A DNA stretch of 64,000 nucleotides from Gammaproteobacteria bacterium. Its GTDB lineage: Bacteria > Pseudomonadota > Gammaproteobacteria > GCA-001735895. The translations under genes and the position numbers were made by a program. Shown here one piece after another: positions 4,648-43,406 of the stretch. Below the pieces are notes generated by a model. The model saw nothing but the letters and a program-made list of their open reading frames with translations, was not told where the DNA came from and did no database searches. The DNA is taken from NCBI GenBank assembly GCA_029862005.1, contig JAOTYD010000003.1, positions 70,158 to 134,157 on the forward strand, in the 5' to 3' direction. Position 1 is the stretch's first letter, and each line of letters opens with the position of its first letter.

Positions 4648-5106
4648 CTATTCCTCGCCAAGCCGTGATTTGAGCCAATGGTCGATCGAGAAAAATCCAC
4701 CACCGTAGAGAACACTGGTCAGCAGCATTGAGCCCCAGAGGTAATGCCACACGAGGCCGGCCCCCTTGGCCAGGGTTGCATAGTAAGAAACCACCGCGAT
4801 GATATTAATGAACGAGACAGCAATCGCGGTAAAGCGAGTGCCCAATCCTATGATTAAAAATACCGGGAACACGAGTTCACCGATGGTCGCGAGGTAAGCT
4901 GCTAGTTCAAAGTTTAGCAGTGGTACCTGGTATTCGTACTCGAACAGTACCAGTGTGGTTTCCCAGTCTCCAATCTTGTGCATGCCGGACTTCAGGAATA
5001 CCCAGGCGACGTAAAGCCTGATAAATAACAGGAATGGCGACTGCAGCTTCGACAGTAAATCGTGAATCGACAAAATCGGCGCACTTAACTTTTCAATGAA
5101 CCCCAT
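4648..5106 (-). CDS. DoxX family membrane protein (BufD-like)
   Basis: LFIRLYVAWVFLKSGMHK...ELVFPVFLIIGLGTRFTA...YGGGFFSIDHWL, four TM helices. Confidence 0.9.
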   Translation of the reverse strand: MGFIEKLSAPILSIHDLLSKLQSPFLLFIRLYVAWVFLKSGMHKIGDWETTLVLFEYEYQVPLLNFELAAYLATIGELVFPVFLIIGLGTRFTAIAVSFINIIAVVSYYATLAKGAGLVWHYLWGSMLLTSVLYGGGFFSIDHWLKSRLGEE

Positions 5107-5148
5107 CTTTTTTCTCCCCTGTATTTTTTTGTATAGATTAGTATTTGA

Positions 5149-5175
5149 TTTGAACCCGGGCCTATTGAAAAGTTC
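5149..5175 (-). promoter_or_regulatory. Putative sigmaE/AlgU-type ECF promoter of the DoxX gene
   Basis: Minus strand reads GAACTT-N16-TCAAA about 43 nt upstream of the ATG, matching the RpoE consensus. Confidence 0.6.
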
Positions 5176-5192
5176 ACAACCTCCGGGAAGAA

Positions 5193-32574: not shown

Positions 32575-33156
32575 TTAATCCGTTAACGCCTGTTTTATCC
32601 TGGTTTTCAGAGTCGGCAGCAGCTCGGCTTCGAACCAGGGATTAGCCTTAAGCCAGCGATTGTTCCTCGGGCTTGGATGCGGCAAGGGTATCATGGTTGG
32701 CCAGTAATCCTGCCAGGACTGCACCAGTTCGGTCAGGGAACGTGAACCCGAATCAAAGTGATAGCGTTGGGCATATTGCCCCATGACCAACGTCAATTTA
32801 ATTTGTTGCATATGGCCAAGCAGTTGCGCCCGCCATTGGGTTGCGCATTCAGGGCGCGGCGGCAGGTCACCCGATTTACCGGTACCCGGATAGCAAAATC
32901 CCATCGGCAAAATGGCGATCTTGGCCGCATCGTAGAAAATCTCGCGACTGATCCCCATCCAGTCGCGTAGCCGATCTCCACTTGGATCGTCGAAAGGAAT
33001 ACCGGTTGCATGAACCTTACTGCCGGGTGCCTGCCCGGCGATCAGGATTCTGGCAGTTTCCGAGCACTGCAACACCGGATTGGGACCCAACGGCAGATTC
33101 GGTTCGCATAACCGGCAATCGGCAACTTCGGTGAGGAGTGATTCAAGTGTAACCAT
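32575..33156 (-). CDS. Uracil-DNA glycosylase-like protein
   Basis: CRLC, AGQAPG, PMGFCYPG, LPHPSPRN. Confidence 0.9.
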   Translation of the reverse strand: MVTLESLLTEVADCRLCEPNLPLGPNPVLQCSETARILIAGQAPGSKVHATGIPFDDPSGDRLRDWMGISREIFYDAAKIAILPMGFCYPGTGKSGDLPPRPECATQWRAQLLGHMQQIKLTLVMGQYAQRYHFDSGSRSLTELVQSWQDYWPTMIPLPHPSPRNNRWLKANPWFEAELLPTLKTRIKQALTD

Positions 33157-33481
33157 TAAGATACCTCAAGCTCCTGGAAAACCGGGTGTCGCAATAGTCA
33201 GATCACTGTAATTTGATAACTGGCCGGATTCAAGTTGTTAATCGAACGCACAATCCCCCGCGCTGTCGCTGAATGGCGCGGTCGTAGTCATTAAATTAGC
33301 GAATCGGATTAAAAAAATACCGGAAGGGATCCAAACACGTACTGACAACGTACAATCAGAGGCAGTTCAAAGTGGTTAGTGAGTGTTAAGCGCGGCTTTC
33401 TCCGGTAGCATAATACCCAGATTGTCGACGTCGATACTACCGCTTACGTTGAAATTAAATCCTTCACCCTGGACCCGAGTT

Positions 33482-41170: not shown

Positions 41171-41287
41171 TTGAGTGGTCCTTTATACGGGGACGTAAGA
41201 AATAAACCATGTTGTTCATGTTTTGATGATGCTGACAAGCTTACCCTTTTAGAGCGCTCATATTAACACTAAAAATAGCGCTTCACG

Positions 41288-42073
41288 CTAGTCATTGCTG
41301 AGGCTTAAAACCAGCTGGTCTCCTATCCATTGCTTCAGAAATCCCGCGGCCACCAGCCCTACCTGCGAAGCATCGATCCATTCAAGTAAACCTTCACAGA
41401 TTGTCGCAAAATTCGCCCCGTTTGCAGCTTGATCGAGGGCCCAGGCTTCGTGAACCTCGAGCGAACGCCACTGGATTTTCAGGTCCCGTCGCCACAGCAT
41501 CCAGCGTTGCGCAATCTCGGCGCGCTGTTTTGGCGGTACCTCGGTATCGGTATCCAGCGCGTTCTCGATCAGCGGCACATTCCAGTGCAGATCGAGCCAG
41601 GTGAGTGCCGTTATGAATTTAAACGTAAATTCTGGCCATGCTTCGGCGGGAACCGCCGCCACGTCTTCCAGCTGAACTGGTTGCGGGCAATCAGCGGCGT
41701 CGAAGATCATCGTTTGCGCCCACTCGTAACGCGCCAGCTCCTGCAAAAACCCGGCGTCCTCACCGTCATAAATATTGTCGAGATAAGTGGGCAGGTAACG
41801 GCCGAACCAGCGTACCGAGGGATCGCTGGAAGGGAAGTGGCGCAGGTAGTCTAGCGCCAGGTTTTCAAATGCCTCCCGGCCGATGGTTTTCTGCAGCGCG
41901 GAATAATCGACGGCGAGACAGTCGATGAGACGAATGCGATAGGCATTGTAGTAAGTGCCGAGCCGATGTTCGGCAAGCGCATTTTCGGTGCTGGTTATGT
42001 CCTGCTCGATATCATCCGATCCGTCAATCAGGTAGTGCTGGAAGCGCAGCTGCAAATCACGCAAGTGAGACAT
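41288..42073 (-). CDS. DUF2063-type MNIO partner protein (BufC/HvfC-like)
   Basis: LQLRFQHYL, RLGTYYNAY, FGRYLPTYL, LARYEW; 2 nt downstream of DUF692 gene; start MSHLRD at 42073. Confidence 0.88.
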   Translation of the reverse strand: MSHLRDLQLRFQHYLIDGSDDIEQDITSTENALAEHRLGTYYNAYRIRLIDCLAVDYSALQKTIGREAFENLALDYLRHFPSSDPSVRWFGRYLPTYLDNIYDGEDAGFLQELARYEWAQTMIFDAADCPQPVQLEDVAAVPAEAWPEFTFKFITALTWLDLHWNVPLIENALDTDTEVPPKQRAEIAQRWMLWRRDLKIQWRSLEVHEAWALDQAANGANFATICEGLLEWIDASQVGLVAAGFLKQWIGDQLVLSLSND

Positions 42074-42075
42074 GG

Positions 42076-42915
42076 TCAGACCCGGTAGTAGGGTTCGGCG
42101 ATTCGGCGAGCGTGCTCCAGCTCTGCCAGCACGGTATCGAGCTCGGGGATATTGCCATCGCGTTCGATCATCGTGGAAACCGGGCCGAAACGTTTCGCGG
42201 TCTCTTCGTAAAGTGCCCATACGGGCTCTATGACATCCTGGTCATGGGTATCGATAATCAGGTTGCCATCATTGGTATGGCCCGCCAGGTGGTGCTGCCA
42301 GACTCGTTCGACGGGCACGCCGTCAAGGTATTCGACGGGATCGTAATGGTGGTTATAGCTACTCACGTAGATATTATTGACGTCGAGCAGCAGGTAGCAA
42401 TCGGCCCGGTCGGCAATCTCGCTAAGAAATTCCCATTCAGGCATCGCGTCTTCGCAGTAGGTAATATAACTCGAAAGATTTTCGATCAGCATTTGCTGGC
42501 CGAGGAAGTCCTGCACCCGTGAAATCCGGTCTGCGACGTGATTAATGGCTTCCTCGGTGTAGGGCAGGGGCAATAGATCGTGCATGTTTTTATGATCGAC
42601 ACCAGTCCAGCAAAGATGATCTGAGAACCAGCGGGGCTCGATGCGTTCAATCAGGGCCTTTAGTTTTTTCAGGTATTCAAAATCAAGCTCGTCGGTAGTG
42701 CCCAGTGACATCGACACGCCGTGCATCACCATCGGGTAATCCTGGCGGATTGCATCGAGAAAATAGAGCGGCTTGCCGCCTTCGATCATGTAGTTTTCGC
42801 TTAAGACTTCAAACCAGTCGATGTTTGCTGGTTTGCGGTCGAGAATATCCTGGTAATGCTCGGCCCGCAGTCCCAGGCCGAAGCCAAGAAATGGTTTAGA
42901 CGAGGGCTCTGTCAT
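42076..42915 (-). CDS. DUF692 multinuclear non-heme iron oxidase (MNIO, BufB-like)
   Basis: GLGLRAEH, ENYM, HGVSMS, SDHLCW, HDLLPLP, ENLSSY, LLDVNNIY, HLAGH, IDTH, ERD. Confidence 0.96.
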   Translation of the reverse strand: MTEPSSKPFLGFGLGLRAEHYQDILDRKPANIDWFEVLSENYMIEGGKPLYFLDAIRQDYPMVMHGVSMSLGTTDELDFEYLKKLKALIERIEPRWFSDHLCWTGVDHKNMHDLLPLPYTEEAINHVADRISRVQDFLGQQMLIENLSSYITYCEDAMPEWEFLSEIADRADCYLLLDVNNIYVSSYNHHYDPVEYLDGVPVERVWQHHLAGHTNDGNLIIDTHDQDVIEPVWALYEETAKRFGPVSTMIERDGNIPELDTVLAELEHARRIAEPYYRV

Positions 42916-42961
42916 AGCTGCAGGTCCAGACTTTTAACGATATTTATTGTATCCGGCAGGC

Positions 42962-42994
42962 AAAAAAAATGCACCGACAGGGCCGGTGCATTTT
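42962..42994 (-). terminator. Intrinsic terminator between precursor and MNIO genes
   Basis: Hairpin AAAATGCACCG..CGGTGCATTTT with an A8 run (U8 on the minus strand). Confidence 0.75.
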
Positions 42995-43014
42995 CACTAG
43001 CTGAGAAAGACAGC

Positions 43015-43266
43015 TTAGGCTTCGAAGTTGCCGCCAGCTGATTCACATTCTGACTTGGTACGCTTAACCCAACCCTGTCCCGCGCAAGAGTTTTGACCCG
43101 CGCAGCTGGTGGTAGCGGTTGCGCAGGCGCTGGTGCCTTTGCATGAGTTGACGTTAAAGCATTTACCAGCCTTTTCGGTTGCAGAAGCGCTCATGGGTGC
43201 AACGGCAAACATAGCGGCTGCCGCGGCGGCAAGTGCGATCCCAGTGGTTTTCTTAGCTGTAATCAT
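43015..43266 (-). CDS. Bufferin-type (BufA2-like) six-Cys RiPP precursor with Sec signal peptide
   Basis: MITAKK..ALAAAAAAMFAVAPMSASA then CFNVNSCKGTSACATATTSCAGQNSCAGQGW..ECESAGG; GAGG RBS; upstream of DUF692. Confidence 0.88.
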   Translation of the reverse strand: MITAKKTTGIALAAAAAAMFAVAPMSASATEKAGKCFNVNSCKGTSACATATTSCAGQNSCAGQGWVKRTKSECESAGGNFEA

Positions 43267-43325
43267 TATATAGATCCTCACGTTTGATAAAGTTGGTTGT
43301 ACTGGTTTTTCCCCATTACGCGAGC

Positions 43326-43353
43326 TTAGAGAAGCCCTATTTCGAGAAAGTTC
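43326..43353 (-). promoter_or_regulatory. Putative sigmaE/AlgU-type ECF promoter of the precursor operon
   Basis: Minus strand reads GAACTT-N17-TCTAA about 60 nt upstream of the precursor ATG. Confidence 0.55.
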
Positions 43354-43406
43354 ATAAAAAATCCCGATTTTTTTGAATTTTTCGCTTAAATTACCGGGTG
43401 GGACCT

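Follow-up and report, generated by a model that had tools for sequence, protein, structure and literature searches.

We analysed a 64-kb stretch of chromosomal DNA (the window) from an uncultured marine-sediment gammaproteobacterium, in which a lone gene for a DoxX-family membrane protein, doxX, lies 36-38 kb from a bufferin 2 operon, bufA2-bufB-bufC (bufA2BC). Bufferins are recently described and very widespread periplasmic copper-binding peptides of the ribosomally synthesised and post-translationally modified class (RiPPs). No sigma factor genes have been reported in Buf2 clusters (PMC12452194), and their regulation, together with the role of BufD/DoxX, is what is at stake here. Both doxX and bufA2 are preceded by a conserved motif that reads as an RpoE-class promoter and, on balance, we favour a model in which they head two separate transcription units of a single stress regulon governed by an extracytoplasmic function (ECF) sigma factor. 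An earlier note on this DNA had proposed a dispersed but co-regulated RiPP system. The conserved RpoE-class promoters on both units uphold one half of that proposal, since a single RpoE-class sigma is likely to co-regulate them; the other half, by which DoxX and bufferin 2 would be the separated parts of one functional system, is unproven.

On the minus strand, the region upstream of doxX reads ggttgTGAACTTTTCAATAGGCCCGGGTTCAAAtc (5149-5175) and that upstream of bufA2 reads ttaTGAACTTTCTCGAAATAGGGCTTCTCTAAgc (43326-43353), i.e. GAACTT-N16-TCAAA and GAACTT-N17-TCTAA, respectively, exactly as the earlier note had described them. Including one further base upstream, the predicted RpoE-class doxX promoter occupies 5149-5176 (-35 element TGAACTT at 5170-5176, 16-nt spacer, -10 element TCAAA at 5149-5153) and that of bufA2 43326-43354 (TGAACTT at 43348-43354, 17-nt spacer, TCTAA at 43326-43330). 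In extended form, the two motifs are TGAACTTT-N15-TCAAA, ending 43 nt before the doxX ATG, and TGAACTTT-N16-TCTAA, ending 57 nt before the bufA2 ATG, with predicted start sites at ~5141-5143 and ~43319-43321. The doxX promoter begins 18 nt past the valS stop codon, and an A/T-rich stretch is found upstream of the bufA2 -35. A strict search of the 64 kb for TGAACTTT-N15/16-TCWAA returned the doxX and bufA2 sites only (2 matches against 0.03 expected), and none of 100 shuffled sequences gave 2. The looser GAACTT-N16/17-TCNNA has three matches in the window where 0.93 are expected, the third being antisense inside lptG. When one -35 mismatch is allowed, the sole further intergenic RpoE-like candidate in the window is a weak site, CAACTT-N15-TCAAA, at 33212-33237 on the minus strand, 56 nt upstream of an open reading frame at 32575-33156. 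No sigma-70-like site directed at doxX or bufA2 was found in the scanned regions.

For comparison, 80 loci were fetched around BufB homologues in species-representative genomes and 80 around DoxX homologues in metagenomes. Exact GAACTT-N15/16-TC(A/C)AA is present in 55 of 58 distinct upstream regions of doxX orthologues (0.13 expected), 62-72 nt before the ATG, and GAACTT-N16/17-TCNNA in 42 of 48 distinct bufA2 upstream regions of the clade (0.17 expected), 75-103 nt before the start codon; three more bufA2 loci have GAACTA instead of GAACTT. Each locus has a single copy of the strict motif, nearly always at the expected place. The doxX promoter set contains 51 distinct spacers with a mean identity of 47%, the bufA2 set 39 distinct spacers, and across both sets spacers are 47-62% identical. 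At bufA2, GAACTT is always preceded by T and TCTAA always by C, though neither base was imposed by the search; the T(T) after GAACTT and the GGT before TCAAA are likewise conserved without having been imposed, and the doxX consensus reads tGAACTTTT...cGGTTCAAA. As the hexamers are kept while the spacers diverge, this is the classical phylogenetic footprint of a two-block promoter, and it strongly supports the prediction that both motifs are real, conserved ECF promoters. The two spacers in the window also share an AATAGG, to which the earlier note had drawn attention. The match is present in both sequences but is conserved in no orthologous promoter; we rejected it as a signal and regard it as coincidence. 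Outside the clade (Methylophaga, Motilimonas, Shewanella and others), where gene starts were only approximated, no GAACTT-type motif was seen upstream of Buf2. Four fetched loci carry a strict TGAACTTT-N-TCAAA ~1 kb downstream of bufC (L042 4412-4440, L048 3593-3621, L049 12690-12718 and L050 2871-2899), 75-100 nt upstream of a gene for a DUF4198-like periplasmic protein and inside a divergent HupE/UreJ-like coding region; this motif could point to a further regulon member or be a coincidence within coding sequence.

Comparison with E. coli supports the assignment of both promoters to the RpoE/AlgU class, as the earlier note had proposed. The region upstream of E. coli rpoE contains GAACTTTACAAAAACGAGACACTCTAA, i.e. 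GAACTTT-N15-CTCTAA, with the same -10, CTCTAA, as bufA2; we take this site to be the sigma-E-dependent P2 promoter. The E. coli sigma-E regulon is not known to include a gene for a bufferin or for DoxX. For sigma-E promoters of E. coli, Rhodius et al. (PMC1312014) give the motifs GGAACTTTT and (T/C)GGTCAAAA, separated preferentially by 16 nt (range 15-19) and with A/T-rich DNA upstream; the doxX consensus comes close to these motifs. As in E. coli sigma-E promoters such as rpoE P2 (PMC1312014), a -35 of GAACTTT is followed, after a 16-17 nt spacer, by a -10 of TCAAA or CTCTAA, GGT immediately precedes the -10 at doxX, and bufA2 has its A/T-rich stretch upstream; unlike in these promoters, T takes the place of G before GAACTT. 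A promoter of SigF/NrsF type was rejected, since the Caulobacter SigF motif GTAACC-N16-CGAA (PMC3511200) is absent from both upstream regions.

The earlier note had described its system as having no dedicated sigma or anti-sigma gene next to it, and none was detected in the window or in the flanks of the fetched clade loci by tblastn with an E. coli RpoE probe. Across the window and all loci searched, this probe matched in L068, L070 and L071 only. E. coli rpoE mutants have been reported to be metal-sensitive, which would make an RpoE-driven copper buffer plausible. Control by a sigma encoded elsewhere is described for Caulobacter, where SigF, encoded at another locus, drives buf1 and buf2 (PMC11626156; PMC3511200), and for H. 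influenzae RpoE2 and Neisseria SigE, which are encoded elsewhere and drive a DoxX operon (PMC7907618); the Neisseria sigma-E paper gives no promoter motif for comparison. In L068 (6863-9518, a Pseudomonadota metagenome-assembled genome, MAG), bufA2 directly follows rpoE-rseA-rseC and a glutaredoxin-like gene (grx) on the same strand, with nadB divergent and bufB-bufC converging on bufA2, a physical link between a canonical rpoE and Buf2. In the two Steroidobacter-like MAGs L070 (8998-12300) and L071 (9063-12301), a doxX whose product is 48-49% identical to the window's DoxX is divergent from bufA2-bufB, adjacent to genes for an ECF sigma and a zf-HC2-type anti-sigma; no BufC is detectable at these two loci, and similar TGnAAT-N17-GTCTnA motifs, read from these two sequences only, face both doxX and bufA2. 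A more distant complete genome (L054 9076-16337, OZ255836.1) carries a tandem pair of bufA2 genes ahead of bufBC, GAACTT-N16-TCACA upstream of bufA2, and valS 2 kb away without an adjacent DoxX gene.

The window cluster is of Buf2 type, with a BufA2-family precursor, a BufB-type MNIO and a DUF2063 BufC all present on the minus strand. bufA2 (43015-43269; NCBIfam NF050166 BufA2, 78.7 bits, cut-off 60) encodes an 84-residue precursor which, judged by its sequence, has a Sec signal peptide ending ..SASA and a 55-residue core with six Cys, the family being described by a signal peptide and 6 or 12 Cys (PMC12452194). bufB (42076-42915; NF050167 MNIO_BufB, 385 bits, cut-off 310; Pfam PF05114, 377 bits) encodes the predicted MNIO (DUF692) bufferin maturase, and bufC (41288-42073; Pfam DUF2063, PF09836, 61.5 bits against a threshold of 27.2) a DUF2063/RRE-type partner protein with a weak HvfC match (36 bits). 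Its start, MSHLRDLQ, was picked by alignment with orthologues and lies 2 nt past the bufB stop codon. Directly after bufA2 comes an intrinsic terminator or attenuator hairpin, tGCACCGGccctgtCGGTGCa followed by T8 (42962-42990, minus strand). A hairpin and T-run are present in all 49 distinct bufA2-bufB spacers, changes in loop and stem preserve the pairing, and the form GCACCG-loop-CGGTGC plus T7-8 is that of the window and L004-L055.

Transcript data were taken from assembled Logan contigs of related strains, covering many marine-sediment metatranscriptomes, and not from raw reads; they show in situ transcription of both genes. In several marine-sediment runs, bufA2 contigs span 43000-43303, 43020-43297 and 43018-43277. 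The predicted start site lies ~16-20 nt upstream of their 5’ ends (43297-43303), and their 3’ ends at 43000-43020 fall at the stop codon, just before the hairpin and T8. One doxX contig reaches 35 nt beyond the ATG, to ~5143, i.e. the predicted start, and does not reach valS. These ends are compatible with the predicted start sites. Contig depth over bufA2 is several-fold above that over bufBC; this drop, together with 3’ ends at a conserved terminator, indicates that a short and plentiful mRNA serves for the precursor and that read-through into bufBC is attenuated.

The doxX gene itself (4648-5106, minus strand; Pfam DoxX PF07681, 63.8 bits) is monocistronic, directly downstream of valS, and encodes a BufD-like inner-membrane protein of 152 residues without Cys. 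Profile searches find no other DoxX gene in the window, and none in the 41288-43269 cluster, in line with the earlier note. Membership of the HvfX subfamily was rejected: on the NCBIfam HvfX model (NF050144), the window DoxX reaches 59.7 bits where 80 are required, and covers half of the model (positions 4-86 of 165). Operon-encoded BufD1 proteins score 44-66 bits on this model and a true HvfX (L067) 234. The closest non-orthologous DoxX homologues (40-54% identity) are bufferin-linked in metagenome, plasmid and genome collections alike. In nine metagenome loci (DoxX 46-51% identical), a bufB homologue lies ~1 kb upstream of doxX; seven of them were read gene by gene, six having the order DUF2282 precursor-MNIO-DUF2063-DoxX (bufA1-bufB-bufC-bufD) and the seventh, L163, an MNIO gene followed by DoxX. 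The top plasmid matches, from Methylomagnum (53%), Thiothrix (50%) and Ralstonia (40%), belong to annotated DUF2282/DUF692/DUF2063/DoxX operons. A Cupriavidus oxalaticus megaplasmid (L166 3476-4417) has a DUF2282-like (bufA1-like) gene followed directly by DoxX, with no MNIO gene within 4 kb. In a neighbour-joining tree, the valS-linked DoxX proteins group weakly (bootstrap 36) and are sister to a BufD1 clade, the union of the two having a bootstrap of 77; HvfX (31% identical) and E. coli YphA (27%) fall outside that union. The earlier note had named phylogeny as a check on its DoxX, and the outcome, with bufferin-linked proteins as closest non-orthologous relatives and true HvfX and YphA distant, supports a BufD-like ancestry, the main caveat being that the comparison included few DoxX proteins without a link to MNIO genes. 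Where BufD is taken to mean a protein encoded in or next to a bufferin cluster, the window doxX falls outside the definition by its distance.

Synteny in relatives, another check the earlier note had suggested, shows that doxX and bufA2BC are stably unlinked. All doxX orthologues (58-100% identity) retain the valS-doxX pair, with yrbL and ftsZ usually next, and in the window doxX stands between valS and yrbL. The order aroC, retropepsin-like protease, bufA2BC is kept across ~50 species, with gcvP after bufC in most. Thus, valS-doxX-yrbL and aroC-protease-bufA2BC-gcvP are fixed, unlinked arrangements across the clade, both of them ancient and stable. Single genomes in which both doxX and bufA2BC are seen are the window's, that of the Olavius algarvensis Gamma 3 endosymbiont and the MAG JAACFA01. 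The Olavius symbiont is among the relatives of the window organism, and metagenomes from estuarine and marine sediments contain identical or nearly identical contigs.

The window has 52.8% G+C and is rich in housekeeping genes (ddl, ftsA, ftsZ, valS, lptFG, parE/parC, efp, gcvP, aroC, proS). Between ftsZ and doxX, and convergent with doxX, lies a gene of the YrbL/PhoP-network family (PF10707; 3897-4583, plus strand), which is kept in most, not all, orthologous doxX loci. Immediately upstream of bufA2 is a gene for a membrane-anchored retropepsin-like aspartyl protease (PF13975; 43407-43919, minus strand); it adjoins bufA2 in nearly all clade loci examined and is not found beside the Buf2 clusters of other lineages. 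A terminator-like hairpin and T-run found by a consensus scan (TAGCGTGAAGCGCTA then TTTTTAG; 41270-41290, minus strand) would close the operon at the bufC end, before gcvP. Most clade loci have a conserved GATACAAT box between the bufA2 terminator and bufB (42946-42953, minus strand), which could serve as the -10 of a weak bufBC promoter inside the operon. A conserved block, CGTAATGGGG (~43310-43320, minus strand), follows closely on the bufA2 -10, around the start site or at the beginning of the 5’ untranslated region. It fits no Rfam family, and Rfam and tRNA scans of the window gave no matches.

How might the two units work? In the model we favour, envelope or metal stress, the probable inducing signal, would free an RpoE/AlgU-class sigma encoded elsewhere from its anti-sigma, and this sigma would switch on both. 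In the first unit, P(sigma-E type)-bufA2-leaky terminator-bufB-bufC, the promoter would yield the abundant short precursor mRNA, and read-through, possibly aided by the weak internal promoter, would supply BufB and BufC. Before BufA2 is exported by Sec, these two proteins would turn its Cys residues into 5-thiooxazoles, giving a periplasmic copper-chelating bufferin 2. Both the modification and the copper chelation are proposed here by homology with Caulobacter Buf1 and Buf2, this chemistry being established only for the Caulobacter peptides (PMC11626156). The second unit, P(sigma-E type)-doxX, would consist of a single gene just after valS, encoding a membrane protein descended from BufD. DoxX would most likely be a non-essential membrane redox helper in the same stress, not a modification enzyme, and may partner bufferin 2 functionally. 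It looks like a BufD gene that has turned free-standing and has acquired or kept an ECF promoter.

Several observations weigh against a single regulon and against a single system. The -10 elements never interchange: TCTAA is found in 41 of 42 bufA2 promoters, TCAAA or TCCAA in 55 of 55 doxX promoters, and spacer lengths differ by locus (N16/17 at bufA2, N16 at doxX). Such locus-fixed variation could stem from a tuning of promoter strength just as well as from two related sigmas. The sigma gene that would serve both promoters was not found in the window or the clade flanks, the RNA ends are those of related-strain contigs rather than mapped 5’ ends, and one low-depth metatranscriptome contig crosses the bufA2 promoter. 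Among the 80 Buf2-type loci, a profile search finds DoxX in the flanks of only three, in one case as part of a neighbouring hvf cluster. In Caulobacter, buf2 has no bufD, and neither modification nor copper protection requires BufD1 (PMC11626156). The closest relatives of the window DoxX come mainly from Buf1, not Buf2, operons, and a Buf1 operon may exist elsewhere in the genome. Finally, RpoE-type regulons are large and hold many unrelated genes, so shared control alone does not make one system.

These points also correct the premise from which the earlier note set out. It had treated DoxX as missing from the bufferin cluster; as 77 of the 80 related Buf2 loci are without DoxX, and as Caulobacter buf2 has no bufD, Buf2 clusters normally do without it and nothing is missing from the window operon. 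Nor does anything show that DoxX was split off from the window operon: its relatives are mainly of the Buf1 (DUF2282) type, and no trace of a splitting event is seen.

The alternative that survives best, and which we consider a real though lesser possibility, is that doxX and bufA2BC are functionally unrelated members of a broad envelope-stress regulon under RpoE, Buf2 being complete without DoxX and the former BufD now acting in general membrane or redox stress. The scarcity of DoxX at Buf2 loci, the absence of bufD from Caulobacter buf2 and the dispensability of BufD1 (PMC11626156) all agree with this, as do the fit of the promoters to the general sigma-E model of E. coli, rpoE P2 included, and the stable separation of the two loci across ~50 species. 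In addition, M. tuberculosis DoxX acts in thiol homeostasis without an MNIO, as cited in PMC7907618. It is countered by the bufferin linkage of the nearest DoxX relatives in three independent collections, by the Steroidobacter-like doxX (48-49% identity) that stands divergent beside bufA2-bufB and next to an ECF sigma pair, and by the fact that the doxX and bufA2 sites are the sole strict motif matches in 64 kb. A more ambitious scenario, which we hold to be rather doubtful, is that bufferin production in this large clade of uncultured sediment Gammaproteobacteria moved from a dedicated metal-sensing sigma of SigF/NrsF type to RpoE, the general sigma for envelope stress, and that the free-standing, bufD-derived DoxX was kept in the same regulon since it works with periplasmic bufferin 2.

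It is improbable that the two promoters are served by two different, related ECF sigmas sharing a GAAC-type -35 and differing in -10 and spacer preference, in which case the co-regulation would be only apparent. What suggests it is the absence of crossover, in ~100 sequences, between TCTAA with N16/17 and TCAAA/TCCAA with N16, and the fact that other lineages have a dedicated ECF sigma, differing in specificity, alongside Buf2. Yet both loci have the very same -35 block, TGAACTTT, and a single E. coli sigma-E uses both -10 variants and tolerates spacers of 15-19 nt. As the -10 variants and spacers are fixed by locus, the reading of both units by one and the same sigma is likely but unproven. 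As for the motifs being there by chance or being conserved for another reason, e.g. as a valS 3’ element, with transcription from sigma-70 promoters or by read-through, the missing terminator between valS and doxX would permit read-through and one contig does cross the bufA2 promoter, but two strict matches against 0.03 expected in the window, 55 and 42 motif-bearing orthologous regions against 0.13-0.17 with freely varying spacers, and no sigma-70-like site towards either gene in the scanned regions leave this explanation scarcely credible.

Compared with known systems, the single-regulon model describes a regulatory and organisational variant. Like buf2ABC of Caulobacter vibrioides (CCNA_02999-03001, SigF/NrsF regulon; PMC11626156, PMC3511200), the window operon combines a six-Cys precursor with a Sec signal, an MNIO BufB and a DUF2063 BufC, and has no DoxX; the Caulobacter operon is driven by an ECF sigma from another locus, together with a second, DoxX-carrying locus, as is proposed for the window operon. 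Unlike in Caulobacter, the promoter is of RpoE/AlgU class, TGAACTTT-N16/17-TC(A/T)AA and not GTAACC-N16-CGAA, a conserved terminator follows the precursor gene, and DoxX stands alone after valS instead of being the fourth buf1 gene, with no buf1 operon or sigF-nrsF seen in the window. With BufD1 of bufA1-bufB1-bufC1-bufD1 operons, the window DoxX has in common 40-54% identity over nearly the full length, a WxSTLxLFEYEYQVPLL block, a sub-threshold HvfX score and a sister position in the tree; it differs in being monocistronic under its own ECF promoter and unlinked to an MNIO gene, the nearby bufferin cluster being only of Buf2 type. The hvf (oxazolin) operon of H. influenzae (RpoE2) and Neisseria (SigE) offers a further parallel, in that, under periplasmic stress, an MNIO RiPP operon with a DoxX gene is induced by an ECF sigma encoded at another site (PMC7907618; PMC11252979), but it has an EGKCG-repeat precursor family, a ZAS-type anti-sigma group and a different DoxX subfamily (HvfX at 234 bits, against 59.7 for the window DoxX).

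Our current understanding of bufferins is not overturned by the case described here. Rather, the conserved RpoE-class promoter on a Buf2 operon links a bufferin to the general envelope-stress response in an abundant lineage of sediment bacteria and symbionts, and the conserved precursor-terminator layout explains how precursor mRNA comes to exceed enzyme mRNA. A BufD-like gene standing alone under the same class of promoter provides a test case for whether BufD works with bufferins or independently of them. If DoxX has indeed been kept to work with a bufferin 2 encoded at a separate locus, such a function would have been invisible in laboratory assays of Caulobacter, and this natural uncoupling could reveal what BufD does.

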